This document shows positions 955 to 58,724 of a stretch of DNA of 64,000 nt, one piece after another (position 1 is the stretch's first letter; each line of letters starts with the position of its first letter). The translations under genes and the position numbers were made by a program. Source of the stretch: an uncultured delta proteobacterium (GTDB lineage Bacteria; Desulfobacterota; RBG-13-43-22); assembly GCA_963790475.1 (NCBI GenBank), contig CAWBOS010000001.1, forward strand, positions 128,001 to 192,000. Direction: 5' to 3'. Below the pieces are notes generated by a model, which worked only from the letters and a program-made list of their open reading frames with translations, was not told where the DNA came from and did no database searches.

Positions 955-1085
955 CGGGGGTTGGGATCAATGCTTAAACCATGACAATTTGAATTATTTA
1001 ATCCGGGGCGTTCTTGAATCGGCCCATTGCTAACCCTGTAGACCCTCGAAGCACCGAACCATCAGGCCACACAACCGACGGGCCC
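955..1085 (+). repeat. Repeat family A copy 1 (3'-truncated, no promoter module)
   Basis: CTTAAACCATGACAATTTGAATTATTTAATCCGGGGCG...GCACCGAACCATCAGGCCAC; another GGGGTC follows at 1095. Confidence 0.9.
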
Positions 1086-1243
1086 TTTTGAAAGGGGGTC
1101 GGGCCACGAGAACAAAATGAACTTACCTGGGATATTGAAAAATTTTCCCCTTTAAATAAGCCTGTAATGAGCTTTTTGAGACAAAAAAAGACAGTTTTCT
1201 CCCGGCCAAAGGAAGAGAAGTCATGGTTGGCGACAAACAGAAA

Positions 1244-2773
1244 TTAAAACCTGTTCTTTTCGGCTGCCGCCCTTTTCCTGGCGATCTGGCCGAAGGCCCA
1301 GGCCTCGGGATAATTGCTTCCCCCTTGATAGAGGAAACCAAAGAATGATCCCAGTTCCCCGGCGGCGTACAGTCCGGGAATTGGCCTGCCGTCGAAATCC
1401 AATACCTGACAGTCACCGTTATGCTTGGGGCCTCCCTGGGTATTTACCAGCGTAAGCCCCAGTTCAACGGCATAATAGGGAGGCGTCTCCAGGGGGGCCA
1501 AAGAGTTTTCTTTTCGGCCGAATTGCGGATCGCGGTTGTCCCGACAGGCGCGATTGAAATCGCGGATCGTTTCTTCCAAGGCACCCGCGTCCGCCCCGAT
1601 CAGGCCGGCTAGGTCGGCTATCTTGTCCGTCTGGAATATCCAGCCTTTGTCGATCTCGGCCAGATTGTCGCTGCTCCAGTCGTAAATCCCGTGGACCAGG
1701 CTGTAACCGACCGGTCCTTCCCATACCTTCTGAATCTGTTCCCGCGTACTGGCAACGGGCCCCCGGCGCCGATAGGCCTCATCAAAGATCATGAAGGCGG
1801 GCAGATTGCGGTATTCCGCGCGTTCGTGGTCAAAGGACAGGATCTCCAAAGGCGCCTTGCGATGAACGAGGTTGGTGTTCTCGGCCATGAATCTTTTCCC
1901 GTATCGGTTAACGAACATGAAGCTGCCCTCCGGCATCGTTATGCCCAAACCGGCTCCCACCGCTGTCCCGAAGGCCTGGCTTGGCTTTTTGGCGCATAGG
2001 GCGCCCCACTCTATCGAGGCCATGTGCCAGAGGGCGGCCCCGGCCTCGGAAGCCAGCTTAATCCCGTCACCGGTGTTTCCCGGTGTCCCCCAGGGGAAAA
2101 TGTAATTCGTCGCCCCGGGAAAATTGAAGTCGGCCAGCATGGACGGATTGTATTCGTATCCGCCACAGGCCAGAATAACTCCCTTGCGGGCCATTATGGT
2201 TATATCCCGTCCATTTTGTCGGGCTTTCAGGCCTCTGACTTCATGGCTTCGCTTGTCCTGGATCAGCTCCCGGGCCTCGGTATTCATCAGAACTTGGATC
2301 TTCTTCTTTTGCACCAGGTTATCCAGAAACTGAAACCCTTTCTGCCCGGTCGGGCTGAAGCGGATGAGCTGAAGTTTTCTGCTCAGAAAGGCGGGAAAAT
2401 AGGTAGGCAACATGGCCCGGATTTTGAACTCCGCTCCCAGTTCGGCCAACAAACGGGGGATCCCCACCATAGCCTCGGCAAAGACACGGATCATCGCCTC
2501 ATCCACTGTGCCGAAAGAAAGGGCGCGGTAATAATTCACGGCCTCCTCGAGGTCATCCGGGATCAGCATGGCCCCGGCACAGACCCCGCTGTTTCCTCCC
2601 GGATATCCTAATTTTTCCATGATCAGCACCTGCGCCCCGGCCTGGTGGGCAGCCAGAGCGGCATTGGCCCCGGCCGCTCCGTACCCGACAATCAGTACAT
2701 CCGTTTTATGGTCGACCGCCCCGGTCAGGGGACCCGTATTCTCCAGGTATTTGTTGTTTCCTTTTTCCGGCAT
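1244..2773 (-). CDS. FAD-binding oxidoreductase (fumarate reductase flavoprotein / 3-ketosteroid dehydrogenase-like family)
   Basis: DVLIVGYGAAG, GGNSGVCAG, GNTGDG, TQGGP, IPGLYAAGE motifs. Confidence 0.88.
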   Translation of the reverse strand: MPEKGNNKYLENTGPLTGAVDHKTDVLIVGYGAAGANAALAAHQAGAQVLIMEKLGYPGGNSGVCAGAMLIPDDLEEAVNYYRALSFGTVDEAMIRVFAEAMVGIPRLLAELGAEFKIRAMLPTYFPAFLSRKLQLIRFSPTGQKGFQFLDNLVQKKKIQVLMNTEARELIQDKRSHEVRGLKARQNGRDITIMARKGVILACGGYEYNPSMLADFNFPGATNYIFPWGTPGNTGDGIKLASEAGAALWHMASIEWGALCAKKPSQAFGTAVGAGLGITMPEGSFMFVNRYGKRFMAENTNLVHRKAPLEILSFDHERAEYRNLPAFMIFDEAYRRRGPVASTREQIQKVWEGPVGYSLVHGIYDWSSDNLAEIDKGWIFQTDKIADLAGLIGADAGALEETIRDFNRACRDNRDPQFGRKENSLAPLETPPYYAVELGLTLVNTQGGPKHNGDCQVLDFDGRPIPGLYAAGELGSFFGFLYQGGSNYPEAWAFGQIARKRAAAEKNRF

Positions 2774-2898
2774 TCTCTCCTCCTTGGGAAAATAGCTTCA
2801 TCGCGGCTGATCCCATTTTTCTCCGACTCACAAAATTCCGGGGAGCCGGATCAGCAGCCGGATGGTCAATTTATGAAAACTCCTTGATAAGAATTTCC

Positions 2899-2941
2899 TT
2901 TCTGATGAAGAGAATATAAGGGAAAGAAAAGAGATGGTCAA
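2899..2941 (-). promoter_or_regulatory. Promoter module (TTGACC-17-TATATT) upstream of the FAD oxidoreductase
   Basis: Minus strand reads TTGACC atctcttttctttccct TATATT ctcttcatcagaaa, the same layout as the 3' end of repeats A/B. Confidence 0.65.
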
Positions 2942-3190
2942 ACAGAAAAAAATGTGGTTTGATAGGCGCGGGGTAACGGAGTCGGGCACAAAAACTAATT
3001 GTCCTGGGAGGGATTAAAGCTATCTGTGCCCTCTATGAATAATATAAAAAGAGAAAAGTAAAAAGGTAAAGGCGGGTTTCCGGCCCGGGGGAGAAATCAG
3101 GGAAGAAGACCATGAGTATCAGATAAGGAATCAGCAGTTATCAGGCCCGACCCTGGAACCGACTGGTTACCATCATAACCTGGAGATCCT

Positions 3191-4681
3191 ATGACTAAAA
3201 ATATCAGCGAACAATTGCAGCCTATTTTCAACGCGAGATCGGTGGCCGTGATCGGGGCTTCGAGTGCTCCCTTCAAGTGGGGTGCGCAAACGGTTCATCG
3301 GCTGATCAACTTTGGCTTCCATGGAGCCGTTTATCCCATCCATCCTAAGGAGAAGGACATTCAGGGACTCAGGGCCTACCCTTCGGTGCTGGACGTAAAG
3401 GAGTGCATCGATCTGGCGGTGATAACCGTGCCGGCGGAACGGGTCCCCCGGTCGATAAAAGAGTGTGTAAAAAAGGGGATCAGGGGCGCCATCATTATTT
3501 CGGCGGATTTCGCGGAAACCGGTGCGCGCGGTCGCGCTCTCCAGGAGGAAACCACGGAAATCGCACGGCAAGGAGGTCTCCGATTCGTGGGACCGAATTG
3601 TTTCGGACTTTTTAATTCCTCCAATGGTTTAAATACCCTTCCGACGGTTCCGGCCAAGGGAGAGATCGGTTTTATCTCTCAGAGCGGTTCCCTGGTGCAC
3701 ATGGTCGCCAGCGTCGCCTCAGCCAAAGGGTATGGGTTTAGTAAGCTGGTCAGCGCGGGGAATCAGGCCGACCTGGACGTCGCCGATTACCTGGAGTTTA
3801 TGGGGGAAGACCCGGAAACAAAATCCATCGTTATCTACCTGGAGGGTTTCAAAGACGGACGGAAATTCCTGAAGGTCGCCAGAGAAATCGCCGCTAAAAA
3901 GCCGGTCGTTATTTACAAGGCCGGGCGCCATCCCGGCAGCAATCGCGTATCCATGTCTCATACCGCCAATATGACCGGAGAGGACCGGGTCTTCGAAGCC
4001 ATGTGCCGCCAGGCCGGACTCATCAGGGCCAACACGCTGCAGGCCACTATGGATATGGCGGCCATATTGACCAAACAGCCCTCCCCCCATGGAAACCGGA
4101 TCGGGATTCAGGGGACCGGCGGCCAGTGCATGATTTTGACGGATACCTGCCTTTCTCTGGGCCTGGAAGTTCCGGAACTATCCGATGAAGAGGCGGAACA
4201 GGTGATATCCGGAATCGATTTTCCGGCCCATGCTCCGTTTCCCAGAAATCCGATTGACTTTGCCGGCAGTCATACGGCCCTGATGGATGCGACCGTCATT
4301 AATAACCTGGCCCGGCTGGACAAGATCGACGCCATCATTTCCTATCGGCCGGTCACCTTTCACCGTGAGTCAAGTGATTCTCCGGAACAGGTCGAGGAGA
4401 TGGACCGGAAAGTCGGAGAGTTATTGGCTGAAGCCCCCTGGAAATATGGGAAACCCCTGATTCTCATCGGCTTTGATCAGGCCATTAAAAACGAGGTGTT
4501 GCGGGGAAGTGAAATAATCGATCAGGCCTTAAAAGAGGCGGGCATATTGAGTTTCCTGACTCTGGAAGATGCGGCCGGGGCCATGCAGGCCCTGGTGAGC
4601 TATGCAAACATTAAAAGTAGAAATCGGGGACCAGACCAAGGGATTAAATTTTCAAAGAATTATACAAGAAGTGATGGGTAA
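3191..4681 (+). CDS. Acetate/acyl-CoA ligase (ADP-forming) alpha subunit, CoA-binding protein
   Basis: SVAVIGAS, GPNCFG, SQSG, SAGNQAD, SHT phospho-His motif, NPID. Confidence 0.9.
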   Translation: MTKNISEQLQPIFNARSVAVIGASSAPFKWGAQTVHRLINFGFHGAVYPIHPKEKDIQGLRAYPSVLDVKECIDLAVITVPAERVPRSIKECVKKGIRGAIIISADFAETGARGRALQEETTEIARQGGLRFVGPNCFGLFNSSNGLNTLPTVPAKGEIGFISQSGSLVHMVASVASAKGYGFSKLVSAGNQADLDVADYLEFMGEDPETKSIVIYLEGFKDGRKFLKVAREIAAKKPVVIYKAGRHPGSNRVSMSHTANMTGEDRVFEAMCRQAGLIRANTLQATMDMAAILTKQPSPHGNRIGIQGTGGQCMILTDTCLSLGLEVPELSDEEAEQVISGIDFPAHAPFPRNPIDFAGSHTALMDATVINNLARLDKIDAIISYRPVTFHRESSDSPEQVEEMDRKVGELLAEAPWKYGKPLILIGFDQAIKNEVLRGSEIIDQALKEAGILSFLTLEDAAGAMQALVSYANIKSRNRGPDQGIKFSKNYTRSDG

Positions 4682-4689
4682 AAGAGACC
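4652..4689 (+). repeat. Short repeat family C copy 1
   Basis: 34/38 nt identical to 12895-12932; both copies lie at gene 3' ends. Confidence 0.75.
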
Positions 4690-4755
4690 TTAAGCCGGCT
4701 TTTTATCCCCAAAAAGAAGCCTTTAAGAGGAATACCGATTCTGTGCAGAGGTAGG

Positions 4756-4776
4756 GGGTCAGGTTCAGAATCTTGC
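4756..4776 (+). repeat. 21-bp junction repeat GGGTCAGGTTCAGAATCTTGC
   Basis: Exact copy at 25279-25299. Confidence 0.8.
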
Positions 4777-4971
4777 ATACTCTAACGTATTAAAGGGGAA
4801 CACCGGGGTAGCAGGTTGATCTTTAAAAGACTGGGCATCCGACCTGGATTCCGGCAGAACTCTATAGAGGGACCCGGCAGCATGTTATAGGGACCAGAAA
4901 GCAACATTCCGCATCTTATGTGGATCCATCTAATTAATGTCGGCTGCCAAAAGAAGGGGAGATAGAACATC

Positions 4972-5565
4972 ATGTCCATCATTTCTGCATGCATTCTCCT
5001 GTTTATGGTGATGGATCCATTCGGGAACACACCTTTCTTCCTGAGTGTTCTCAAAACCGTCCCAAAGGAAAGGCGAAAAAGAGTAATCACCAGAGAACTC
5101 CTGATCGCCTTGCTCATTCTGATGGCGTTCTTTTTTTTAGGCCCATATTTTCTGGGGGTACTGCAGATCTCCGAGTCTTCCCTACGTATTTCAGGTGGTA
5201 TTGTTCTGTTCTTGATCGCAATCAAGATGATATTTGGCGGAACACAAGAAATGTTCAAGGGCACTCCGGAGGGGGAACCCTTGATCGTGCCACTGGCAGT
5301 TCCTGCCATAGCCGGTCCCTCAACGGTGGCTACTATTCTTCTCCTCGTGGCGCAAGAACCGAGCCGTTGGCCGGAGTGGTTGCTATCTCTGTGCCTGGCG
5401 TGGTTGAGCACTGCGTTAATTCTGCTGTCTTCGACAGAACTCGCCAGACTCTTGGGTGAAAGAGGCCTGACTGCGATCGAACGGCTGATGGGACTCCTCC
5501 TGACGGCAATTTCCGTCGAAATGTTTCTGCAAGGAATTCGTCCATTTCTCGGTTCGCATGTTTAA
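4972..5565 (+). CDS. MarC family membrane protein
   Basis: MDPFGN, ISGGIVLFLIA, VPLAVPAIAGP, ERLMGLLL motifs. Confidence 0.93.
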   Translation: MSIISACILLFMVMDPFGNTPFFLSVLKTVPKERRKRVITRELLIALLILMAFFFLGPYFLGVLQISESSLRISGGIVLFLIAIKMIFGGTQEMFKGTPEGEPLIVPLAVPAIAGPSTVATILLLVAQEPSRWPEWLLSLCLAWLSTALILLSSTELARLLGERGLTAIERLMGLLLTAISVEMFLQGIRPFLGSHV

Positions 5566-5594
5566 GTGAACATGCCAACCAAGAGTTGCCCAAG

Positions 5595-5850
5595 TGGAGA
5601 AGGCCATGGGGTCTCGGGGGCAAATTTTAAACCATGACAATTTGAATCATATAATCCGGGGCGTTGTTGAATTGGTATATTGCGAACCCTTAAGACCCCC
5701 AGAGCACCGAACCGTCCGGCCACGCCACCAACGATTCAAAGAATGGTTTTCGATTCCTGCCTGAATGAAGAAGACGCCCTCCGTCCCTTTGGCTTTGCCT
5801 TATTTTTCCCCTTGATTCTGTCTTTTTCTTGATTTAAACTCCTATCATCA
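5595..5850 (+). repeat. Repeat family A copy 2 with promoter TTGATT(5812)-17-TAAACT(5835)
   Basis: GGGGTCTCGGGGGCAAATTTTAAACCATGACAATTTG... through the promoter module. Confidence 0.9.
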
Positions 5851-5881
5851 ATCTTATCAATTCTTATCTACAGTATATTGG

Positions 5882-6148
5882 ATGTTCGGACCCCAAAAAA
5901 ACATCACCGTTAAAATAAAACTCTATGGGGGTCTGGACCGACTCGCTAAAACAGATCACTACGACCCGGAGGCGGGAATTGAGATCCAAATAAAGCAGGG
6001 TGCCCGGCTGAAAAAAGTATTTGAAAAAATCGGTCTGAGCCGGCGCGAATCTGTTGTTTGTTTTGTCAACGGCAAAAACGTCGGTTTTGACGAAAAGCTT
6101 ATGAACAATGATGTTATTTTTTTCATGCGACCCGCATCCGGCGGTTAA
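5882..6148 (+). CDS. MoaD/ThiS family sulfur carrier
   Basis: VKIKLYG start, VNG motif, C-terminal PASGG; adjacent to AOR. Confidence 0.9.
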   Translation: MFGPQKNITVKIKLYGGLDRLAKTDHYDPEAGIEIQIKQGARLKKVFEKIGLSRRESVVCFVNGKNVGFDEKLMNNDVIFFMRPASGG

Positions 6149-6325
6149 CCAGTTTCCATCCGGTAATGGCCTTCTTACCAATAAGCTGTGCTCTCCGCGG
6201 GGAGGAGCAAAAGCGTTGCATACATACGGCAGTCTGTGAGCATTTTGAGCCGACCCCCAATCCGCTGAGGGCGGACCATGGTTATTTAGATACATTTTTG
6301 AGGTTCTCATAACCACTTAGGAGGT

Positions 6326-8296
6326 GTGACGATGTCTGGAGGCTATGTAGGCAAGTATGCTGTTGTTGATTTGTCATCCGGAGCGACGGATATCGTCAAG
6401 TTGTCTGACGATTTTTATCAAAGGTTTCTGACAGGATATGGTCTGGGGGCGGCGGTTATCACCGAACGTCAGAAAGCCGGTATCGATCCGCTTTCACCGG
6501 ATGCTCACCTGGGTTTTTGCTCGGGTCTTTTAACCGGGACAGGGGCGCCTTTTTCAGGCCGGTTCATGGTGGTCGGCAAATCGCCCCTGACCGGCGGCTG
6601 GGGGGATGCGAACTGCGGCGGTCACCTGTCGCGCGAGATCAAGCGGGCCGGTTTTGATGCTGTTTTTTTCACCGGCTGCGCCGATAAACCGGTCTGGGTC
6701 AACATCAATGATCAGGGTGTAGTGATCAAAGACGCGGCAGACCTATGGGGCAAAGACACCGTTGAAACCGAAGAAAAAATTATAAGGCAACTTGGGGATA
6801 AAAAGGTTCGGGTGGCGGCAATCGGGGTGGCCGGAGAGAAGCTTTCCTTAATTTCCGGCGTGGTGACCGAGGGCGGCAGAATTGCCGCCCGCTCAGGCCT
6901 GGGGGCGGTCATGGGCAGCAAAAAGCTGAAAGCGGTCGCTTTCAGTGGCAGCAAAGAGATCCCGGTGGCCCGACCCCAGAGCGTCAAGGACCTGACGTCG
7001 CGATACCTGTCGGATTTTAAGAGAAAGCCGCGACTGATGGACAAAATAAGCATCCGGTTCCTTGATGGTGTCAGCAAAATAATTTCCAAAACCGGTATCC
7101 GCTTTCCGGCCGAACCCGGCACGGTCAGGGAACTCTGGAGCCGCTGGGGCACCTGCGGTCTGACGGTCTATTCGGCCCTGATCGGGGATATGCCTATTCG
7201 CAACTGGGACGGTGCCGGATATGTCGACTACACTTTTGAGATGGCCGACCGGGTATCGGGCGAAAAGGTCATCAAGCAGCAAAAGCGAAAATATGCCTGC
7301 CAGAGCTGTCCGATGGGTTGCGGCGGCCTTATCGATATCGAGGCCGGCCGCTACCAGGGGACCACCGGCCACAAACCGGAATACGAAACAATGGCTGCTT
7401 TCGGGGGGCTGATCATGCACCATGATCTTGCGGCCATAATCGAGCTGAACGAGATGTGCAACCGCGCCGGCATCGACACGATTTCCGTGGGGGGAACGGT
7501 TGCCTTTGCGATCGAATGCTTTGAAAAAGGGCTCATCGACTCAAAGGCGGCCGGCGGACTCGATCTGGGCTGGGGCAAAACCGAAGCGATTGTAAAGCTG
7601 ACCGAGATGATTATCAACCGTGAAGGTTTGGGTGATCTATTGGCCGACGGCGTCAAAGCAGCTTCCGCGAAAATAGGAAACGGTTCGGAGGCCTTTGCCA
7701 TGCACGCCGGGGGTCAGGAGCTTCCCATGCACGATTCCCGGCTCGACCCCGGATATGCCATTGCCTACCAGTGCGAACCGACCCCCGGGCGCCACACCAT
7801 CGCCAGCTACCAGGATGCCGACCTACGGAGCGGAAAGAAACTATTTCCGGAGGTCCAACGCATGTTCAAGAGCGCCGACAACAAAGAAAGCAAAAAGATT
7901 GCGCTGCACACGGCCGCCAGCATATACGCGCAGCTGATCAACTGCAGCGGATTGTGCCTTTTAGGCGTAGACAGCCTGGATTACCCCATGGTCGAATATC
8001 TCAACGCCGTCACCGGTTGGGATCTTCCGGCGGATGAATATTTCAAGACCGGCCGCAGGATTCAGGCTCTGCGCAAGGCATTCAACCTGCGCGAAGGATT
8101 GCGACCAGGGGATGCAAAATTACACCCGCGCGCCCTGGGCAGTCCGCCACAAACCGCCGGGCCGCTCAAAGGCAAGACCATTGATCTCGATTCGCTGCAA
8201 GCCGTCTATTACCGGATTCTGGGATTTGATCCGGCCACCGGTGGTCCCACTCCGGAAACCCTGCAGGAGCTGGAAATAGATCACCTTTTTGCCTGA
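6326..8296 (+). CDS. Aldehyde:ferredoxin oxidoreductase family (tungsten pterin)
   Basis: KSPLTGG, ARSGLGAVMGSKKLKA, CQSCPMGC, PEYET, GIDTIS motifs. Confidence 0.95.
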   Translation: MTMSGGYVGKYAVVDLSSGATDIVKLSDDFYQRFLTGYGLGAAVITERQKAGIDPLSPDAHLGFCSGLLTGTGAPFSGRFMVVGKSPLTGGWGDANCGGHLSREIKRAGFDAVFFTGCADKPVWVNINDQGVVIKDAADLWGKDTVETEEKIIRQLGDKKVRVAAIGVAGEKLSLISGVVTEGGRIAARSGLGAVMGSKKLKAVAFSGSKEIPVARPQSVKDLTSRYLSDFKRKPRLMDKISIRFLDGVSKIISKTGIRFPAEPGTVRELWSRWGTCGLTVYSALIGDMPIRNWDGAGYVDYTFEMADRVSGEKVIKQQKRKYACQSCPMGCGGLIDIEAGRYQGTTGHKPEYETMAAFGGLIMHHDLAAIIELNEMCNRAGIDTISVGGTVAFAIECFEKGLIDSKAAGGLDLGWGKTEAIVKLTEMIINREGLGDLLADGVKAASAKIGNGSEAFAMHAGGQELPMHDSRLDPGYAIAYQCEPTPGRHTIASYQDADLRSGKKLFPEVQRMFKSADNKESKKIALHTAASIYAQLINCSGLCLLGVDSLDYPMVEYLNAVTGWDLPADEYFKTGRRIQALRKAFNLREGLRPGDAKLHPRALGSPPQTAGPLKGKTIDLDSLQAVYYRILGFDPATGGPTPETLQELEIDHLFA

Positions 8297-8548
8297 AAAC
8301 AGGCAGTCTTCAGGGCAGGCCAGAGTCAAGAGGAAAAGGTTCTCCGAAGCAAAAAGGAGAAATTTTTTCTCACATACTTTAAACCCGATAGAACTATCCC
8401 AAGGTCTCCAACGCCATTACCCTTGTTGAAATTTCAAAGGTTGATGTGTCAGCGATAACTTCACTGTACCGGCATGAGGACATAGGGGTTTTCTGAAGGA
8501 AACGGGCCTATGCAGATCCGGAGTTAACCTGCCGGATAAAGCACGACG

Positions 8549-9007
8549 GTGGATTCGGATATAAAAACCTCGAAAGACAGGATGATGATGCGGTTGAGCA
8601 AGCTGATCCTTTGCATGGCTTTTGTGGTGGTCGTGACCGTCGGCTGTGCAGACACTTCGACAGAAGTAAGAAAAATGGCCGCAGATCTCTATGCCAGGAG
8701 CAGCATACCGCAGCCAAAGCCCCCTTACGGGTTCAAATCTGACGGCTGTTCCTGCTTTCCCGATGGGGATTGGGTTGAGTGCTGCGTCGTACACGATCTG
8801 GACTACTGGATAGGCGGCACAAGCGAGGAAAGAGGGAATGCGGATGCAACACTTAAGAAGTGCGTCGCAGATAAAGGCCATCCAATTACCGCTGGCCTTA
8901 TGTACTACGGCGTCCGCATGGGTGGCGTCTGGTGGTTGCCAACCCCTTTTAGGTGGGGTTTCGGCTGGCCCTACCCGCAATCCGGCCCTCCGAGAAAGCC
9001 ATATTGA
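8549..9007 (+). CDS. Secreted/lipoprotein hypothetical with a phospholipase A2-like CCxxHDxxY motif
   Basis: Lipobox-like VTVGC; SDGCS...ECCVVHDLDY...AD motif; true start probably ~8582-8588. Confidence 0.6.
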   Translation: MDSDIKTSKDRMMMRLSKLILCMAFVVVVTVGCADTSTEVRKMAADLYARSSIPQPKPPYGFKSDGCSCFPDGDWVECCVVHDLDYWIGGTSEERGNADATLKKCVADKGHPITAGLMYYGVRMGGVWWLPTPFRWGFGWPYPQSGPPRKPY

Positions 9008-9237
9008 ACCAAATTCCTCTCCATTAAGGTAAAACATGACAAACCATGAGAAAGATCGAGATGCTTTTGATAAGTTAGCGGATGCCTGGAGAAGCCTTCC
9101 GGAGGACCGGCGAAAGCGGATATTTATAGCTCTTCCTGTCTGTGAGCCAAGTCGATTTTCGGATGTCCCTCCTGACCCTGAGGAGTTGAACTTTATCTAA
9201 GAAATCCTTTTTTTAGCACGGCAGTGCATTGACATAT

Positions 9238-9484
9238 GGGAGAAGGGTCAAGTTTACGTTTGACTTTTATTGTGGGGTCTCGAGGTCAGCCATTAAAAGG
9301 CCACGACAAAGTGGGGGAGGTCGGGTCTAGTTTCTTGACATTGTGCAAAAACCAGGGACAGCGCCCGTTTCTTCACCTCCCTTTCTTTTAATGGAGAAGA
9401 AGACGCCATTCGTCTCCTTATCTTTCGATTTGCTTTTCTCCTTGCCCCGGTCCTTTTGTTGCCTTATACTTTTCCCATTCAAAA
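9238..9484 (+). repeat. Repeat family B copy 1 with the shared 5' junction and promoter TTGCCC(9442)-17-TATACT(9465)
   Basis: 9332-9470 is near-identical to 16214-16351; 9238-9290 resembles 25338-25390 and 26278-26330. Confidence 0.9.
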
Positions 9485-9554
9485 CCTAGACTTCTCGGAT
9501 TTTCGGGAGACAGGTGTTTCAAAATTTTTAGTATTAACTGGAGAGGAAAAACCA

Positions 9555-11418: not shown

Positions 11419-11434
11419 CCTTTCCGTTCATAGA

Positions 11435-49997: not shown

Positions 49998-50246
49998 ATG
50001 GCAGCATCATCAAGGAATCCTGCCGGGATCCATAGCCTGAAGCTGCTTGACCAGGCTTTTGAAGCCCTGCGAACTTTTCATCCCATGAACAGGGAAGAGG
50101 TCGCTTCCCTGCTGGCCAGAACGGCGGAAGCGGCCAAAGACGGGAAATATGAAATGTTTAAGACCAGCACGATGTATGATGCCACCGCGCGAGACCCGTC
50201 TATGATGGGGGAAGATTCGGAGCAGGTACGAAATATGTTCGGATAA
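49998..50246 (+). CDS. Hypothetical protein, possibly an oxidoreductase fragment
   Basis: 82-aa ORF with a GAGG RBS. Confidence 0.4.
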   Translation: MAASSRNPAGIHSLKLLDQAFEALRTFHPMNREEVASLLARTAEAAKDGKYEMFKTSTMYDATARDPSMMGEDSEQVRNMFG

Positions 50247-50355
50247 CAGGGTATTTTTGAAAGCGGCCTTCTAATGGGTTAGGCACTCCTGAGGCTGTTT
50301 AACCTTTCAGCATCTTTTTTTATTATCGTGTTCGAAACAGGAGAGTAGAATTTCT

Positions 50356-50384
50356 TTGACCAGCCCTGTTATTTTTCGTATACT
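50356..50384 (+). promoter_or_regulatory. Promoter module TTGACC-17-TATACT upstream of the GRE cluster
   Basis: Near-consensus hexamers with 17-bp spacing. Confidence 0.7.
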
Positions 50385-50497
50385 CTTATCCGGCAAAAGA
50401 AAACTTCTCCTATTGAAATGGCAGGGAAGACCAGAAGAAACGTTTGAGCTGATCTTCAACGTTCAATCGTATAATGATCAGCTTGGCAGGGGGGATT

Positions 50498-51501
50498 ATG
50501 GAATAAATAACGGGATTACCCTCGTTACCGGCGCGGCCGGATTCATGGGAAGTCACCTTGTTGAATTCCTTGCCCGAAAAGGGGTCCGTACCAGGGCTTC
50601 CGCCCGTCCGAGAAAGGACACCTCATTTTTTGACCGATTGGGCGTCGAATATGTGCCCGCCGACCTTACCAAGCCTGAAACGCTGTCCCGGCTCTTTGAT
50701 GGCGGCGTCGACCGGGTATTCCACCTGGGAGCGATCTGCAATTTCTCCACACCTTTTGAATCCCTCTATCCGACCAACGTTACCGGCGTTAAACTGATCA
50801 CCGAGCTTGCGCTGAAAAATGGGGTTAAGCGCTATGTTCATGTCGGTTCCACCAGCGTGTACGGGTATTACCAGGGTACGCCGTTCAAAGAAGACAGTCT
50901 CCGTGACCCGCAGGATTCCTACGGGAGGAGCAAACGTGACGGAGAAGACAGGGTCTGGTACCGCATCAAGGAAGGCCTCCCGGCCATCATAACGCGGCCG
51001 TGCACCGTGTACGGGACGCGCTGCAATGACGGTGCCGGCAAGGCTTTTTCGCGTCCCTCCAGCATCAGCGTGATCCCGGGAAACGGCAGGCAGCTTCTTT
51101 CCAACGTCCGGGCGGAAGACGTAGCAGCCGCCGTCTACCATCTCTCGCTCATCGATACCGCTGTCGGGCAGGCCTTTAATCTGGCCGAAGACACCCATCC
51201 GACCCTGGAGGAGGCGCTGGTGATGTCCTCCAGGGCTTTCGGTACCAGGCCGCCAAAATTACACCTGCCACTCTGGCTGGTGAAGGCCGTCGCCCGTGTG
51301 GACGGAGCGGTTTCGAAACGCAAAGGACGAATACCGGACCTGGAGCTGGACGCGGTAAAATATCTCTATGATGACTACATCGTGGATAACAGCAAACTGA
51401 AATCCACGGGATACCGGATGATCTATCCGGATTTCAGGGAATCCATGGAACAGATGGGCCAGTGGTATCGTGCGGGAGCGGGGCAGATCAAGTCAGCATG
51501 A
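50498..51501 (+). CDS. Extended SDR / NAD-dependent epimerase-dehydratase (probable indel just after ATG 50498)
   Basis: VTGAAGFMG, FHLGA, YGRSK, RPCTVYG; the RBS-preceded ATG is out of frame. Confidence 0.88.
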
Positions 51502-51520
51502 ATAAACGGGAGGTGCATTA

Positions 51521-52351
51521 ATGGGACAGATTGTGGTAATTACCGGTTGTGCGGATGGGATGGGGCGTCATGTCGCCGAAATGCTGGCCGCTGCAGGTCA
51601 TTCCGTGGCCGGCTTTGACGTCGATTCCCAGGGCATAGCCTCTCTGGAGAAGGCGCTAAAAGATATCGGTGGTGAGCATCTGCTGGAGACCATCGATATT
51701 ACCGACCGGCCGGCGGTCAAGAAATTTTGCGATCAGGTCCTGGCCCGGTACGGTCATGTCGATACGGTGCTTTCCAATGTGGGAATCGGATTCTTCAGTC
51801 CCTTTGAGGAAGTGAATCTCGAGAAAGCCCTCCAGTGCCTTGAAATTAACGTCATCGGGGCGGCAGCCATTTTTCAGGCTTTCATTCCGTCGATGCGCGA
51901 ACGGCGATCCGGTAAGCTGATCGCCATGTCGTCGCTGGTAGGGCGCATTCCTTTCCCATTTGAATCCATATATTCGGCGAGCAAATTCGCCGTCACAGGG
52001 ATGGTGCTCTCGCTCAAGTACGAGGTGGCTCCCTTCGGCATACAAGTGGCTCTCATAGAACCGGCACAGGTGTCCACGAGTTTTGCAGCTAAAATCCACG
52101 TCCTGCCGCCGGAAGATTCCGTCTACCGGGATCGGGCCCGACGGTTTATTGAGCGGGATAATGAACTCATCAAAACGGCGCCCACGCCTCCCTATGCGGC
52201 CCAGAAGATCATGAAAATCATCGAGGCGGAAAAGCCGTCCTTGTTCAATCAGATCGACTTCATGAGCACTTTTTTCCTGTGGCTCAACCAGTTCCTGCCG
52301 CGACGGATGAGGGACGCGATCCTGGTCAGCCACATGCATATTAAAGTTTGA
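51521..52351 (+). CDS. Classical SDR oxidoreductase
   Basis: ITGCADGMG, NVGIG, YSASK, IEP. Confidence 0.92.
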   Translation: MGQIVVITGCADGMGRHVAEMLAAAGHSVAGFDVDSQGIASLEKALKDIGGEHLLETIDITDRPAVKKFCDQVLARYGHVDTVLSNVGIGFFSPFEEVNLEKALQCLEINVIGAAAIFQAFIPSMRERRSGKLIAMSSLVGRIPFPFESIYSASKFAVTGMVLSLKYEVAPFGIQVALIEPAQVSTSFAAKIHVLPPEDSVYRDRARRFIERDNELIKTAPTPPYAAQKIMKIIEAEKPSLFNQIDFMSTFFLWLNQFLPRRMRDAILVSHMHIKV

Positions 52352-52368
52352 GCTACCGGAGGTATTCC

Positions 52369-54756
52369 ATGGGAACACAACCTGCACTCCGTCAACCCCT
52401 GACGCAGTCCCGCGTCGAAAGGCTCCGCTGGAAGATCATCGAGGCGCCCCAGGAAGTCTGCATCGAGCGCGCCCGATACCTCACCGAATCGATGAGCCTC
52501 CACTGGGACAAGCATCCACTGACTCGGATGAGTCTGGCCTTCGAGCACATCCTGAAAAATATCAGTGTCATTATCCGCGATGACGAGCTCATTGTCGGGT
52601 GCCGCACCTCCAAGCTCAAGGGCGCCCCCCTGTTTCCGGAAAACAAGTCGTTGTGGATTGAGGGAGACCTGGAAAATTTCGATAAACGGGTATTGCAAAG
52701 GGCAATGATCTCGCAGGAAGAAAAAGAAGAACTGGCCGACGACAATTCTTCCCTTCTGGAAAGGGAAAACCGTGGAAGACCGGTTGCAAAAGCTCATGCC
52801 GGAAGATGTGCTGACTGACATGGACAAGTACATCTTCACCATGATGCTCGAGATCACCTACGGGATCGGCCATTTTACCATGGACCACCCGCGGATCCTG
52901 GCCCGCGGTCTTCGCGGCGTCATAGACGATGTCCGAACAAAAGTCGGCGGGGCTCTCCCCGGAAGAGAAGGCCGGTGAAAAGGGGCTCTTTTATGATGCG
53001 GTGATTCGCAGTTGCCGGGCGGCTATCTCTTTTGCGAAGCGCTACAGCGAGCTGGCGCTGGCCATGGCCGCGGCGGAGCGCGACCCCGAGCGGGCGGCGG
53101 AACTCCGGGAAATCGCCCGTGTATGCGGTCGTGTTCCCGAATACCCGGCTGAAACACTCCATGAAGCCATCCAGAGCCTCTACTTTATACACCTGCTGGC
53201 CCAAATTGAATCGGGCGGAAACTCCATATCACTGGGTCGAATCGACCAGATCCTATTCCCTTATTACCGGAAGGATTGGGAAGCCAAACGGGGATCCCCG
53301 GAAAAGGCCCGGGAACTCGTGGCCATGCTCTTTATCAAGACCAACGAGATCTGGAACGTCCTGGAAGAGGCCTTCATCCCCGGCGGAGAGGGCACTGAGG
53401 GCAAGACGACTCAGAATGTCACCGTGGGCGGTGTGGGGTCCGACGGTCGAGACGCGACCAACGATATGAGCTATATCGCCCTGGATGCTTACGCCGACGT
53501 GAGAACCGTGCAGCCCAATTTCGGCGTTCGGGTCTCTCCCGATTGCCCGGAGGAACTGATGCGCCGGGCCGTCGAGTATGACCGCGACGGCGTGCTGATG
53601 CATTTTTTCAATGATGAAGTGATTATCCGGTCGCTGGTACAGGGAGGCCACGCGATTGAAGATGCCAGGGATTATGGTGTGGTGGGCTGTCTGGAGCCGA
53701 GTGCGCAGGGGAAGACTTTCGGGTCCACATTCGCGGTGCAGTTCAACGGCATCAAATGCGTCGAGCTGGCCCTGTCCAACGGGATTGATAATATCTTCGG
53801 GTACCCGAGCGGTATTGAATCGGGGGATCCGGCGGGATTCAAGAATTTCGAGGACCTCTGGAATGCCTATGACCGGCAGGTGCGCCATTTTATTAACCAG
53901 ATGGTTCGGGGAATGGATGTGCTGGACCGCGTGATCGCCGAAACCGTCCCCTCTCCCTTTGCCTCGGCGATGGTCGACGGCTGTCTGGAGAAGGGTGTGG
54001 ACCTGACCAGGGGCGGCGCAGTCTATAATTCCACAGGCGTGCAGCTTATGGGATTTGCCAATGTGGTGGACAGTCTATACGCCGTGAAAAAAGAAGTCTT
54101 CGAAGATAAGCGCTTTACCATGGCCGACCTGACCCAATGGCTGTCGGAGGACTGGCAGGATGCCGAGGACAAACGCGCCTATTTCCTGAACCGCGTTCCA
54201 AAATACGGGAACGACAATGACGATGTCGATGCCCATGGCCGCACGGGTGATGGATCACTTCTGCGACGTCCTGTCGAAATACCGGAACTTCCGGGGAGGG
54301 GCCTTCTGGCCGGGCATCTTCTCTGTTGGTTTCCATATCACCATGGGGGCTTTTACCGGCGCCACACCTGACGGCCGCTTCTCAGGAGACGTACTCGGAA
54401 ACGGCATCACGCCGACGACGGGAAACGCCGTATCCGGTCCGACGGCGATCATGAATTCCGTAGTGAAGCTTCCGGTGGCCCGGGTATTTAACGGCGCCAA
54501 TCTGAATATGCGATTTCAGGGAAAGAAGATCAGCACGGAAAACCTCACGGCTCTCATCAAGACCTATTTCCGTGGCGGCGGTACGCAGGTGCAGTTCAAT
54601 ATGGTCGATTCGGCAACCCTCAGGGAGGCCCAGATGCATCCGGAGAAGCACCGTGATCTGTTCGTCCGGGTCAGCGGTTATTCAGCCGAATTCATCGGCT
54701 TGAGCGAGATAGCCCAGGATGAGATTATAAGCAGGACCGAGTTTGAGATGAATTGA
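52369..54756 (+). CDS. Glycyl radical enzyme (PFL-like family), three +1 frameshifts (~52744, ~52940, ~54233)
   Basis: CIERAR, SLGRIDQ, QNVTVGG, VQPN, VVGCLEP, KYGND, GATPDGR, QFN, VRVSGYS across four ORF pieces. Confidence 0.92.
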
Positions 54757-54811
54757 CATGTTGCTGAAAAAATATTGAGTTTTTGCTCAAACTATCTAAG
54801 GGAGGACGGGA

Positions 54812-55252
54812 ATGAGTATATACTACAAAGACGCCGAGGATCTTTACAAGATATACGGATACTTTTTGGACCGGGTCTTACGGGACGACAAGATCGGGGC
54901 GAAAATGAGCAAGGCCGGCATCATTATAAAATTCAGGTACACGGACCCGGAGGCGGAGATCACCATTGACCTGAAAAATCCGCCGACCAAACAAGGATAC
55001 TACGGCACCTATTATCTGGGGGCCTCCGATCTCAAAGAGGATGTCTGGTCCAGGCAGACGGCCGACTTTTCACACCGGTTCTGGCACGGCCGCGAAAACC
55101 CGATCGCCGGCGTCGCCAGGGGGAAAATCAAGCAGGGCGGGAAGGTGACCGCCATGCTGAAACTTTTACCGGTGATCAAGCCGGCCTTTCAGCTCTTTCC
55201 GGTGGCCCTGCGGGAACTGGGCCTCGACCACCTGATTGTTTCAGAAAAATGA
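54812..55252 (+). CDS. SCP2 sterol-binding domain protein
   Basis: FRYTDPEAEITID...ADFSHRFWHG..NPIAGVARGKIKQGG...LKLLP. Confidence 0.8.
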   Translation: MSIYYKDAEDLYKIYGYFLDRVLRDDKIGAKMSKAGIIIKFRYTDPEAEITIDLKNPPTKQGYYGTYYLGASDLKEDVWSRQTADFSHRFWHGRENPIAGVARGKIKQGGKVTAMLKLLPVIKPAFQLFPVALRELGLDHLIVSEK

Positions 55253-55300
55253 CCTGGTATGTGTTGCTTCTTTTCGCCTGAGATGATCTGATAGGAGAAG

Positions 55301-56869
55301 TTGATGGAAACCAAATACACCTTTGAAGAAAAGAAGATAAGTGGAAACACGATAAGGGCCTATGCCAACCGACCGCAAACGATTCATGAAATGTTCAGCA
55401 AGACCCTACAAACTTACCCCAACCGTGAAGCCGTTAAGTTCGGCGAAATCTCTTTAACCTATACCGAATTGAATCAAAGATTGGATGAATCAGCCTCGTT
55501 TCTCAAAAATGAATTCAATGTGGGGAAAGGGGACCGGGTGGCGGTCTTCCTGAAGAATGACGATGTTTTTCCCATAGCCTTTCTGGCCCTATCGAAGCTT
55601 GGCGCCATCTCGGTCGTCCTGAATACCAGGCTGACCAAGCCGGAATTGGCCTATCAACTGGAGCTGACCAAGCCGGTTGCTGCTGTCGTCGACGACGAAA
55701 CATGGGATAAGGGTTTGGACAACCTGATGAAATTTAAAGTGGAGAGCAGTTCTTTGAGGCGGATATGGGGTAAAGGGGGCACCTGCCCTCCTGCCGCCGG
55801 AAGCGAAGATGATGTCCACACGATTCTTTTCACTTCAGGTACGACGGGGAAACCGAAGGGGGTAAGAATCGTTCACCGCAACTTCATCCATAGCGCCATA
55901 AGGCTTGAACAATACATGGAGATGCTGGGTGCGACCCGTCCTGGGGAGGCGTGCAAAACATTGGTCGTCGCCCCCCTGTTCCACGTGATGGCGCTTCAGG
56001 AGCAATTCCTGCCCAGTATGAAGATGGGGAATACGGTGGTGATGCTCAGCGCCCTTAACATCCAGGCCTTCCTTGAGCTGGTTGAAAAAGAACGGATTGA
56101 TTTCCTGGTCGGATCGCCGGCCATATACCGAATATTGCTGGGATCGGAAGACGTTAAAAAGTATGACTTGAGCTCCATCAAAATTGCCGGCTTTGGCGCA
56201 GCACCCATGTCGCCGGATCTGATGGCGGAAATGAAAAAAGCCTTTGTCAATGCCAAATTCTTCAATGGCTTTGGTCTCACGGAAGCCTCTATATCGCTGG
56301 CTGCCCTGGACCTCGAATGCACGGAAAAGCCCACCTCGATAGGACACCCCAGTCTCGGTTGCGAAGCCAGGATAGTGGATGAAAATATGAGTGAGGCGCC
56401 GAGAGGTGCTGTGGGAGAAATAGCCGTTAAGGGACCCAATGTGGCCGACGGTTATTACCATAATCCGGAGGAAACGGACAAAGTCTTCAGGGAGGGATGG
56501 TTTCTGACGGGCGATTTGGGAAAGATAGACGATGAAGGGTTCTTTTATGTGGTCAGCAGAAAAAAAGATATGATCAATCGCGGCGGGGAGAATGTCTATC
56601 CGGTTGAGGTCGAAAACATCCTCTATCTTCACCCTAAAGTGCTTGAAGTGGCGGTGGTTGGCCTACCGGATAAGGTTATGGGGGAAAAAGTGGCGGCAGC
56701 CATCGTCGCCGTTCCCGGGACAACGCCCACCATTGAGGAGATAAAGGAATACTGCAGCGATAAACTGGCCAAATACAAAATTCCCGAACATATCAGCTTT
56801 GTCGCCTCCCTGCCCAAGAATGCCGGGGGGAAAGTGATAAAGGCGCAACTATTGAAGAATGTTTTTTAA
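55301..56869 (+). CDS. Class I adenylate-forming acyl-CoA synthetase
   Basis: FTSGTTGKPKG, GFGLTE, TGD, RKKDMINRGGENVYPVEVE, PKNAGGK. Confidence 0.93.
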   Translation: MMETKYTFEEKKISGNTIRAYANRPQTIHEMFSKTLQTYPNREAVKFGEISLTYTELNQRLDESASFLKNEFNVGKGDRVAVFLKNDDVFPIAFLALSKLGAISVVLNTRLTKPELAYQLELTKPVAAVVDDETWDKGLDNLMKFKVESSSLRRIWGKGGTCPPAAGSEDDVHTILFTSGTTGKPKGVRIVHRNFIHSAIRLEQYMEMLGATRPGEACKTLVVAPLFHVMALQEQFLPSMKMGNTVVMLSALNIQAFLELVEKERIDFLVGSPAIYRILLGSEDVKKYDLSSIKIAGFGAAPMSPDLMAEMKKAFVNAKFFNGFGLTEASISLAALDLECTEKPTSIGHPSLGCEARIVDENMSEAPRGAVGEIAVKGPNVADGYYHNPEETDKVFREGWFLTGDLGKIDDEGFFYVVSRKKDMINRGGENVYPVEVENILYLHPKVLEVAVVGLPDKVMGEKVAAAIVAVPGTTPTIEEIKEYCSDKLAKYKIPEHISFVASLPKNAGGKVIKAQLLKNVF

Positions 56870-57074
56870 GGGTCGATCTTAAACCATGACAATTTAAATT
56901 ATTTAATCCGGGGGTTGGTTGGATTGATTTATCACGAACCGTATAGACCCCCGATTCTTGCCTGAATGGAAAAAGGATCACCATCTACTCCCTTGCCTTC
57001 ACCCCCCAGTTTAATCGCCCCTTCTTTTCTCCTTGCCCCGGTCTTTTTCTTGCCTTATACTCTTCCCATCAAAA
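56870..57074 (+). repeat. Repeat family A copy 6 (internal deletion) with promoter TTGCCC(57033)-17-TATACT(57056)
   Basis: GGGTCGATCTTAAACCATGACAATTTAAATTATTTAATCCGGGG begins immediately after the TAA stop. Confidence 0.92.
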
Positions 57075-57317
57075 TAAAAATTCCTATGAAGAAAAAAGGG
57101 AAGAAGGTCTAATTTTCAATATGAGATTACGAAATAATGATAAATCAAATGAGTATGTACGATTCCTCTGAAGTAAGCCCTCCTGAAAGCGTAAAATGAA
57201 AAAGATGGACCGCACTAATAAAATGCGCCGGAAGGCCGCTGATCTCAAATTGTCGGTTTCCAAATGGACTGTGGCCAGGAAAACTCCAAACCTGTGGCCC
57301 AGGGTCGAAGGGACCGA

Positions 57318-58493
57318 ATGAACAAAATCAGAAAAATGCTTTGGAATCTGATCACCAGTGGTCTGCCGGGCAGCGAAAATATCGAGGTGCTTCGTAAGGT
57401 GGTCCTGCAGAACCTCATGTTCCTGTTGGCAGCCCCTAGCCTCATCCTTTTTATCTTTATCGCCTATGCGAAAGGGGAAATTCTGCTGGTGGCAATCGAC
57501 TCGACGGCCGTGACATTTTTGATCGCCTTGTTCGTCGGCCTGCGAAAGACCGGCAACTATAGGAGGACCGGAGCGCTCGGAACAACGGCCGCCGGCCTTT
57601 TGTTTACTTTCCAAATCGCCGACGGCGGCGTGGGCCATACCGTTTTGATCTGGTCTTTGATCTATCCCTTGGTTGCCCTCTTTCTGCTAGGCCTTAAGCG
57701 AGGGGGCCAAATGTCCTTGTTGCTTCTGGGGTTGGCAATCGCGATTATCATCCTCGGGAAAGAGGTCTCCTGGTTGGCGGTTTACCCGACAGATCTTATC
57801 GTTCGTTACCTGGCGGTCTATATCCTCATCTTTTTCTTCTCATTTGCGATGGAAAAGGTTCATTCCCAGGTCCGGGGCCGGATGGAAACATCAAACCTGG
57901 ATCTTCAGGGTGCACTGGCCAAAGTCCGGGAAGGAGCCTCGGCATTGGCCGAAGCCAATCGGGAGCTGCGGGTGGAGATCACCGAACGCAAGCGGGCCGA
58001 GGAAGCCCTCAAGACCTTGTCCCTTAAGGATGATCTAACCGGCCTCTATAACCGTCGGGGGTTTTTTACTTTGGCCGAACAGGGCTTGAAATCGGCTCAA
58101 AGGATGGGAACAGAAATGTTGCTCGTTTTTGGAGACCTGGATAATTTGAAAGGAATTAATGATACCTTCGGCCATAAAGAAGGGGACCAAGCCTTGGTGG
58201 ATATTTCACAGATACTTAGGGAATCCTTTCGGGAGTCGGATATCATCGCCCGCAATGGGGGGGATGAATTTGTCGTTCTGGCCATGAAAAGCTCTGAGAC
58301 CTCCCCGGAGAAACTGATCAACCGCTTCGAGCAGGTTTTAAATAACCATCATCTCCAGACAGAGCGCTCCCATAAACTCTCCATGACCTTTGGTATTGCC
58401 TGTTTTGATCCCCGAAATCCATGTTCCATCGATACCCTGCTTGCACAGGCAGACAAATTGATGTATGAGGATAAGCAAAAAAAGGGTAGATAG
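57318..58493 (+). CDS. Membrane-anchored diguanylate cyclase
   Basis: 5-6 TM helices, DDLTGLYNRR, RESD, GGDEF. Confidence 0.92.
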   Translation: MNKIRKMLWNLITSGLPGSENIEVLRKVVLQNLMFLLAAPSLILFIFIAYAKGEILLVAIDSTAVTFLIALFVGLRKTGNYRRTGALGTTAAGLLFTFQIADGGVGHTVLIWSLIYPLVALFLLGLKRGGQMSLLLLGLAIAIIILGKEVSWLAVYPTDLIVRYLAVYILIFFFSFAMEKVHSQVRGRMETSNLDLQGALAKVREGASALAEANRELRVEITERKRAEEALKTLSLKDDLTGLYNRRGFFTLAEQGLKSAQRMGTEMLLVFGDLDNLKGINDTFGHKEGDQALVDISQILRESFRESDIIARNGGDEFVVLAMKSSETSPEKLINRFEQVLNNHHLQTERSHKLSMTFGIACFDPRNPCSIDTLLAQADKLMYEDKQKKGR

Positions 58494-58546
58494 GCTCAGA
58501 TTTTTTGCCTCCTCTTTTTCTTATGCGCATTTCTAACTGAGCGGAT

Positions 58547-58724
58547 CGGGGGCGAATCTTAAACCATGATTAGTTGAATTATATAATCCGGGGTGTTGTT
58601 AAATTGGTATGTTTCTAACTTATAGACCCCCAAAGCGCCGGCAGGCCAGACGACGGGCGGGCCCAAGAAGGTCTTTCGATTCCTGAATGTAAAAATGGAA
58701 ACCGGCGCCTATTTTCCCTTGACC
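58547..58724 (+). repeat. Repeat family A copy 7 (divergent; -35 TTGACC kept, -10 lost)
   Basis: GGGGGCGAATCTTAAACCATGATTAGTTGAATTATATAATCCGGGG...AAGAAGGTCTTTCGATTCCTG. Confidence 0.85.

Follow-up and report, generated by a model that had tools for sequence, protein, structure and literature searches.

The 64,000-nt stretch of DNA analysed here (the window) lies on a contig of an uncultured delta proteobacterium (GenBank CAWBOS010000001.1, positions 128,001 to 192,000) and contains a dispersed repeat, repeat A, which together with a sister form, repeat B, stands between unrelated genes. Repeat A is probably a composite junction scar, in which the decayed 5′ end of a helicase gene has been joined to a portable promoter, and the window itself would be a recombination-driven cassette region comparable with those of the PeSLs of T4-type phages, and not an integron. 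This assignment is built on direct observations of the anatomy of the repeat, the copy numbers of its modules, the rule governing their orientation, their taxonomic range, the homology between one module and the helicase gene stub, the mosaic structure of the window and the shuffled order of its genes.

Window positions are used unless a contig prefix is given, C1 being the 256-kb contig, in a genome of 6.34 Mb (G000), that holds the window; genes are crude longest-open reading frame (ORF) calls. Copies of the repeat were located by direct-repeat detection (families D1–D12), and an alignment of the seven A copies, in which repeat A measures ~290 nt and varies by substitutions and indels, was then run as a profile over G000. 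Both methods agree with a preceding sequence-only reading in placing seven A copies, one stub and two B copies in the window, every one on the plus strand (Table 1). That reading had all copies on the plus strand, which is true of A and B but not of the promoter module, since the copy at 2880–2950 is on the minus strand; and its list, complete for A, B and the stub, missed three copies consisting of the promoter module only (27856–27924, 36229–36298 and 2880–2950) and a lone hairpin piece at 25333–25392.

The profile yields 66 hits in G000 that fall into two sets: the 3′ ~110 positions of repeat A match throughout the genome, on either strand, and the 5′ ~170 positions match almost exclusively within C1:123–187 kb. 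The repeat is a mosaic of separable modules, not one unit. The modules are T (a 60-nt hairpin piece), M1 (~150 nt), M2 (~50 nt) and P (~75 nt), and their copy numbers in G000 are 3 for T, all of them within the window, 12 for M1 and 141 for P. The repeats open 0–50 nt past the preceding stop codon (for example, the stops at 952 for A1, 26268 for A4 and 56869 for A6), with the exception of A5, where the upstream ORF terminates within the repeat. As claimed earlier, the −35 and −10 boxes persist with their 17-nt spacer in A2, A3, A5, A6, B1 and B2; intact boxes are absent from A1, A4 and A7. The further claim, that junctions have their own σ70-type promoter-like module facing the next gene, is borne out to the extent that sequence can tell: six of the nine A/B junctions and three further junctions possess a −35 box, a 17-nt spacer and a −10 box of their own. 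A consensus promoter scan of positions 1–20000 lists 12289–12317, 9442–9470 and 16323–16351, that is, three of the four copies there, A2 being below threshold. The evidence for a terminator role of the T piece is weak: fold z-scores of its three copies are −0.8, −0.4 and −2.8, and one of the three folds better than shuffles.

An iterated profile search of G000 retrieves the 141 P copies, 83 on the plus and 58 on the minus strand. Their information content is highest at the T-tract (TTTTT), at cTTGA and at TATAcT, with the −35 and −10 boxes exactly 17 positions apart, and both the spacer and the ~30 nt downstream (the leader) are moderately conserved. Fourteen copies are located inside crude ORFs; among the 127 intergenic copies, 116 face a co-oriented downstream ORF, and the upstream gene is co-oriented in 65 cases and opposite in 62. 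Because its orientation follows the downstream and not the upstream gene, P bears the signature of a promoter and not that of a randomly inserted element. The sequence upstream of P is mostly unique, and additional shared homology is present in 19 of the 141 copies only. The proposal that the promoter is special to the array does not agree with a family of this size, spread over both strands of the genome and oriented by the downstream gene.

The window holds 9–10 of the P copies, one of them on the minus strand, and is the densest 64-kb stretch of P in G000. In the genome as a whole, 55 pairs of neighbouring P copies lie ≤10 kb apart, whereas 1000 random placements give 27.6 ± 4.2 such pairs and never more than 40. 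Both members point the same way in 42 of the 55 pairs, and similar co-oriented clusters are present in relatives. A scatter of copies in both orientations, with conserved flanking synteny in relatives, had been named beforehand as grounds for abandoning the idea of gene capture; such a scatter is indeed found for P, but the flanking synteny is not conserved. Two pairs of P-containing segments illustrate the reuse of the module: 27857–27915 and 57026–57084 (family D4) are 90% identical over 59 nt, and 9388–9473 and 16269–16354 (family D7) are 93% identical over 86 nt, in both cases before unrelated genes, as judged by Pfam, with the ORF at 57264–58493 that follows the 57026 copy being outside the Pfam scan. 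A sequence-only covariance model detects P in every one of the family's 21 genomes, at 28–143 matches per genome within the genus and 3–19 in other genera; the family, order and class levels comprise the same 21 genomes. Outside the class there is a single partial match, in one of five near-complete genomes drawn from the phylum's other families. P thus appears to be a class-wide σ70-type promoter module with more than 100 uses per genome in front of unrelated genes.

The 5′ half of the repeat has a different origin. The 12 M1 copies of G000 are all on the plus strand, ten of them on C1, and the M1 model matches 14 of the 21 genomes, again as co-oriented clusters. In three of these clusters (G016:C4, G009:C32 and G003:C31) the repeated unit consists of the upstream region, the start codon and the first 24–117 codons of one ORF, which when intact encodes a 625-aa protein with NERD and UvrD-helicase domains and has an RraA-like gene after it. 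By homology, M1 corresponds to the upstream region of this NERD-UvrD helicase gene together with its first ~33 codons, in decayed form. M1 aligns to the helicase stub via intermediate copies (in G016, G004 and G010, and at C12:918945), and the alignment spans from an upstream ..GTTGAAT.. motif to the codons for ..KVFRFL... A profile made only from 14 stubs of relatives gives 26 hits in G000, which include 8 of the 12 M1 copies, all on the plus strand and in register, the best M1 match having an E value of 2.9e-6. According to tblastn, an intact NERD-UvrD gene is absent from G000; a less decayed stub (24815–24910, Table 1) can still be read as protein across one frameshift (..RRVFRFL.., ..FIGWYEP..).

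All A-type copies share the same stub end (~codon 33) and the same continuation, M2, which is homologous to the ribosome-binding site (RBS) and start region located 3′ of the stub, both at C1:123140 and at the orthologous sites in G004 and G010. At these three sites the stub region leads straight into a gene for a 406-aa acyl-CoA-dehydrogenase-like protein. Repeat A therefore descends from one ancestral joint of stub, RBS remnant and P that was later copied. A further piece of the C1:123140 junction is found displaced in the window, where 10854–11068, following an acyl-CoA dehydrogenase gene, is 94% identical over 215 nt to C1:122891–123105, the 3′ end of the gene (152 aa) upstream of the M1 copy at C1:123140.

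In the sister genomes the stubs bound small toxin-antitoxin and defence cassettes, co-oriented beside the intact gene, with cargo that includes DUF433/DUF5615, PemK/MazF-like, Fic and PLD-like nuclease genes and an ATPase with DUF234, in inserts of 0.6–3 kb. Fourteen stubs accompany the intact gene in G003:C31 and five in G009:C32. Between these two genomes, the intact gene and the gene downstream of it are 95% identical; the cassettes common to both differ in order, and the shared blocks start or end in stubs. The stubs have 3′ ends at 116, 131, 176, 190, 204, 230, 250, 269, 281, 294, 304 and 316 nt that are identical solely where the following cassette is the same, and their 5′ limits form several types. 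Variation of the breakpoint by cassette type argues against one fixed crossover site, and the pattern fits one illegitimate event per cassette type, followed by spread through homology. Judging by titles and abstract openings, none of the papers listed in a literature search deals with NERD/UvrD stub arrays, and we make no claim that they are unpublished. Two further observations concern the helicase locus: a region of ~14 kb located 3′ of the helicase and RraA genes in G003 (C31 26974–41222) is absent from G009 and carries, besides three further helicase stubs, large ORFs of 1081, 611, 611 and 306 aa on the minus strand; and a helicase homologue with 43% identity is present in a Syntrophaceae metagenome-assembled genome, on a 7.6-kb contig without stubs.

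The genes of the window match relatives as gene-sized blocks, 84–94% identical, on unlinked contigs. With blocks defined by ≥84% identity and ≥400 nt among the matches listed, 25 of 48 matches pass in the 20–40 kb part of the window (8 of the 25 being GroEL) and 16 of 44 in the 40–60 kb part, compared with 0 of 20 and 0 of 12 in two control regions, for which the search covered the same five genomes and the highest identities are 80–82%. The acyl-CoA dehydrogenase unit at 9489–10778 has 93–94% identity to G011 and G012, where its flanks are entirely unrelated, and in G000 the homology break (from 9489) falls exactly at the 3′ end of the P module of B1. From 5697 on, the A2 unit is shared with G004:C46 at 84–94% identity; there, M2 with P, moaD, AOR, an M1-like copy, another gene, a second M1-like copy and the 406-aa gene follow each other within 6 kb, and the same pieces are rearranged across 13 kb in G000. 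Three window genes stand within 5 kb of each other on G004:C39, in a different order and with the first one preceded by P, and the block 36222–37144 is 92% identical to G009:C8. Together with the co-oriented arrays of the sister genomes, in which the same repeat family occurs, these blocks broadly bear out the earlier suggestion of gene capture, the region behaving as a shuffled cassette region. The earlier statement that the genes between junctions are unrelated holds as well.

From these sequences we infer promoter activity of P, homologous recombination as the motor, the direction of events and, as the origin of the high identities, transfer between species. The P module at each junction most likely starts transcription of the next gene, at a predicted site ~7 nt past TATACT. 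Each cassette type would be born by one illegitimate joint, which would account for its own stub breakpoint; cassettes would then be moved, copied and reordered by homologous recombination between repeated stubs and P modules, in an exchange that would include other species of the genus; and one joint, composed of stub, RBS remnant and P, would finally have been copied along the array of the window. The joints would in this way double as homology for shuffling and, via P, as promoters of the captured genes, with no involvement of a dedicated recombinase.

Several observations weigh against this proposal. Matches resembling σ70 promoters are frequent, 35 in the first 20 kb compared with 21 expected from shuffles. 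Of the eight M1 copies recovered with the stub-only model, seven have weak matches (E 0.02 to 1.6), and the case for M1 being a helicase stub rests on the intermediates and the joint recovery. The 5′ half of M1 is conserved beyond what is expected of a neutral scar and may have a function of its own. A promoter-like site in M1 of A2 (5626–5655; TTTAAA, 18 nt, TATAAT; score 10/12), found at the same place in A7 and at C1:123140, could drive the 406-aa gene at C1:123140, a site without P, and may explain the conservation of this half. The GroEL matches, which make up 8 of the 25 blocks, are expected to be highly similar between genomes regardless, and the controls comprise two regions only. Metagenome DNA contigs of four runs on 42001–62000 (≤ ~500 nt, depth 2–5, uncovered parts being uninformative) contain no presence/absence polymorphism flanked by A repeats, and the two joints listed in them, 55252/55287 and 60041/60135, are not at a repeat.

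The remaining adverse observations concern P itself and are shared with the most serious alternative, by which P is the fixed promoter/operator of one large regulon or σ-factor class and is kept by selection, the A copies are local duplications of a long control region, and neither has a role in gene movement. P is conserved across the whole class, most strongly at the −35 and −10 boxes and also in the leader, and there is one consensus about which the individual positions change independently of each other: the shuffle maximum is surpassed by only 7 of 2346 column pairs, mostly adjacent columns. Linked subfamilies, which would have spoken for proliferation from a master copy, are absent among the 141 copies. 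An old radiation would account for this, as would selection toward a shared functional consensus, which explains it no worse, or even better, than recent copying does. Likewise, P is kept before 4 of 14 G000 homologues (≥70% identity) of P-linked ORFs of relatives, far above the ~2% expected by chance, and is therefore partly inherited with its gene. The same comparison, however, leaves 10 of the 14 orthologues without P, and 15 of 48 ORFs downstream of P in the relatives have no homologue in G000; P is often gained or lost. A regulon would also have to accommodate diverse functions of the downstream genes, homology blocks between genomes that end exactly at P, and the clustering of P in shuffled, co-oriented arrays of several genomes, and it leaves the stub-derived half of the repeat unexplained. 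We therefore regard it as unlikely, although it is the alternative to be taken most seriously.

A bolder form of the recombination proposal is more doubtful still. The stub arrays may constitute a dedicated, integrase-free gene-capture system. Small cassettes would land preferentially in the 5′ end of the NERD-UvrD gene, whose own product may render it recombinogenic, and would there build up in number, be shuffled and pass from species to species; in G000 and similar lineages the fusion of stub and promoter would have extended this system from defence and toxin-antitoxin genes to metabolic genes. This is offered as speculation.

The sequence-only reading had proposed an integron-like platform. 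On this view, as examined here, the repeats would be the sites of site-specific cassette insertion by a dedicated recombinase whose gene lies in another part of the genome. The arrays do bear a hallmark of integrons, i.e., co-oriented repeats bounding unrelated cassettes; the repeats stand directly past stop codons, cassette order is shuffled, and toxin-antitoxin cassettes lie between the stubs of relatives, as in chromosomal integrons. The platform is nevertheless improbable. None of the 19 tyrosine recombinase matches (Pfam PF00589) in G000 is on the 256-kb C1, which extends the earlier negative for integrases in the window, and none is found on G003:C31, G009:C32 or G008:C30, while the only one on G016:C4 is ~155 kb from the array. 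The stub 3′ breakpoints range from 116 to 316 nt by cassette type, and the 5′ limits of the stubs differ too. In agreement with the earlier exclusion of CRISPR and attC, no attC-like fold or core site is present in the repeats (core sites being judged by eye); a conserved hairpin is absent, and the window contains only two pairs of inverted repeats, neither within a repeat copy. Unlike integron cassettes, moreover, the present ones have a promoter of their own at each junction.

A second suggestion of that reading, the left end of a mobile element repeatedly left behind, is slightly less credible again when taken as a transposon or miniature inverted-repeat transposable element (Correia-like or REP/RAYT-type) with an outward promoter. 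Promoter-bearing dispersed repeats do exist in other bacteria (PMC3575422), and a 240-aa ORF at C1:125070–125792, 2.2–3 kb before the window, has a weak Y1 (IS200-like) match (23.8 bits at C1:125157–125372), the only such match on C1. A check for a copy directly upstream of a Y1/HUH transposase had been suggested; this ORF adjoins no copy, being separated from the one at C1:123140 by a gene and an ORF on the opposite strand. The repeat copies lack terminal inverted repeats, their upstream limits vary, P follows the orientation of the downstream gene in 116 of 127 cases, and the 5′ part of the repeat is the scar of a gene's 5′ end. About ten strong IS200/IS605 transposase copies are located on C10 and C12 of G000.

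Least probable of all is M1 as a structured cis-regulatory RNA (leader or riboswitch) or small RNA gene, which would suit the strongly conserved primary sequence of its 5′ half and its direct run into an RBS and start codon at C1:123140 and the orthologous G004 site, but is opposed by a consensus fold of eight M1-region copies of only −5.3 kcal/mol with an unfavourable covariation term (+0.94) and a compensatory change in 1 of 16 predicted pairs, and by zero Rfam matches at gathering thresholds. A scan for tRNA and tmRNA is blank.

Table 1 Copies of the repeat and of its modules in the window
Feature	Position	Strand	Composition	Context
A1	953–1180	+	M1 (decayed NERD-UvrD 5′ stub), then GGGGTCGGGCCAC motif; P decayed	Next gene on opposite strand
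P only	2880–2950	−	TTGACC, 17 nt, TATATT	107 nt upstream of FAD-binding oxidoreductase gene 1244–2773 (−)
A2	5587–5861	+	M1+M2+P (TTGATT, 17 nt, TAAACT)	MarC gene before (stop 5565); moaD/ThiS-like gene 5882–6148 and AOR gene 6326–8296 after
B1	9230–9488	+	T (9230–9291), M2 variant, P (TTGCCC, 17 nt, TATACT); profile match 9390–9484	
A3	12057–12349	+	M1+M2+P (TTGACC, 17 nt, TATACT); profile match 12057–12347	50 nt upstream of kinase-like gene 12399–12890
B2	16227–16356	+	M2 variant+P (TTGCCC, 17 nt, TATACT); profile match 16271–16356	Upstream of DUF3795 gene 16472–16969
Less decayed NERD-UvrD stub, frameshifted	24815–24910	+	~Codons 20–50; E 1.2e-4 with model from relatives' stubs only	
T piece alone	25333–25392	+	T	Upstream of M55 peptidase gene 25444–26268
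A4	26271–26577	+	Longest form: T+M1+M2+decayed P; profile match 26294–26577	Begins 3 nt past stop of 25444–26268
P only	27856–27924	+	TTGCTC, 17 nt, TATACT; GGGGTCGGACCAC motif before	Upstream of AtuA gene 28518–30311
P only	36229–36298	+	P	Upstream of small ORFs 36319–36594 and 36657–36914
Stub of M1 5′ end	45976–46006	+	31 nt; family D11	31 nt past stop of hydrolase gene 45190–45945
A5	48172–48458	+	M1 (16-nt deletion)+M2+P (TTGACG, 17 nt, TATACT)	GGDEF gene 46339–48234 ends within A5; CoA-transferase gene 48818–49951 downstream
A6	56865–57093	+	M1 with stub part deleted+M2+P (TTGCCC, 17 nt, TATACT); profile match 56865–57090	Starts at stop of AMP-ligase gene 55301–56869
A7	58523–58724	+	M1+part of M2; intact P absent	After ORF 57264–58493

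The ORF that precedes A7 is paralogous to the GGDEF gene before A5, on the basis of nucleotide repeat D5 (78% over 300 nt). In the latter gene the original stop codon has been altered, so that the ORF reads into A5 and ends at a TGA inside M1. A third intergenic motif, GGGGTCGGGCCAC followed by ..GAAC.. and often by ..ACTGTCAAT, occurs in the window at 1096–1108 and 27822–27834, and also at C1:119023, 122457, 125809, 203912 and 205889 and elsewhere; it has 30 matches in G000 compared with ~6 expected, 14 of them outside crude ORFs and 7 of those 14 on C1, and it trails some helicase stubs in G003 and G009. Directly before B2, at 15941–16208, lies an element of ~270 nt that is 97% identical to C12:125985–126252, shows 86–87% identity to four further places, three of them in G008 and one in G005, and overlaps a 109-aa ORF without a Pfam match.

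Two genes of the window are split into ORFs. The Cpn60/GroEL gene (22097–24162, minus strand), 85–92% identical to intact copies of relatives, is divided into ORFs 22097–23062 and 23100–23750, and the region contains a perfect 68-nt direct duplication (23946–24013 and 24015–24082). The PFL-like (glycyl-radical) gene is divided into 52348–52818 and 52929–54371; this split may be an assembly error and not a pseudogene, because metagenome contigs of run X1 differ from the window by single-base deletions at 52935 and 54236. Split genes (Cpn60 and PFL-like, and HpaB, SDR and HisKA fragments) were consequently not accepted as a sign of decay, as some of the frameshifts may be assembly errors.

The result of greatest interest lies partly outside the window, i.e., a class-wide portable promoter, and helicase-stub arrays that are ancestral to the repeat of the window. 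If the proposed reading is true, one uncultured sediment lineage combines a portable promoter with integrase-free cassette arrays, which are usually seen apart; a single promoter module would have served at over 100 sites in each genome for as long as the bacterial class has existed, and the borders of the arrays would be scars of the 5′ end of one gene. The PeSL idea, that regulatory repeats serve both as expression signals and as recombination handles, would then extend to bacterial chromosomes and metabolic genes, and would give a concrete answer to how newly acquired genes gain expression. P is in addition a candidate genetic part for a group without genetic tools. Should the regulon alone be true, P would still represent a clean and very large promoter class for an uncultured group.

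The arrays share with chromosomal integrons the co-oriented repeats past stop codons between unrelated genes, the toxin-antitoxin cassettes (in the sister arrays) and the variable order; they differ in that IntI or another tyrosine recombinase nearby and the attC fold are absent, the breakpoints are variable and the junctions have their own promoters. Genomic islands of the dusA type integrate into a gene's 5′ end, for which they supply a substitute; they employ a tyrosine integrase with a fixed crossover site and are large. The repeated 5′ fragments of one target gene beside an intact copy resemble this arrangement, whereas the present inserts are 0.6–3 kb in size, have variable breakpoints and lack an integrase. 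Correia and ERIC elements are short intergenic repeats that supply promoters (PMC3575422); they have terminal inverted repeats and occur in either orientation, whereas P has no such repeats and follows the downstream gene. REP/RAYT systems consist of short palindromic units on either side of a Y1 transposase; a relation to them is at odds with the position of the only Y1-like match on C1 (23.8 bits), which adjoins no copy.

The closest likeness is to the PeSLs of T4-type phages, which Arbiol et al. 2010 (PMC2839356) describe as conserved ~100-bp intergenic motifs that extend from the upstream stop codon to a strong σ70-like promoter, with a T/A-rich stretch before the −35 box. They are concentrated in hyperplastic regions rich in variable genes, and homologous recombination between the motifs, with the promoter carried along with each gene, was proposed as the motor (PMC2839356). 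The two cases have in common an intergenic σ70-type promoter motif, a variable region and differences between relatives that end at the motif. The present case differs in being located in a bacterial chromosome and not in a phage, in that the repeat also holds the scar of a gene stub, and in that no convincing terminator stem-loop accompanies P, the T hairpin being present in three copies only.

Putative mobile promoters, or promoter reuse, provide the second comparison: similar upstream sequences stand before unrelated genes and are common to related taxa, mostly as pairs, with ≥80% identity over ≥50 nt upstream of non-homologous genes as the criterion (Matus-Garcia, Nijveen and van Passel 2012, as given in the commentary PMC3575422). 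In the window, D4 and D7 fall within these limits. The P family is far larger, with 141 copies as opposed to mostly pairs, includes the −10 box and the leader, is found class-wide and occurs in co-oriented arrays; P is an extreme case of promoter reuse.

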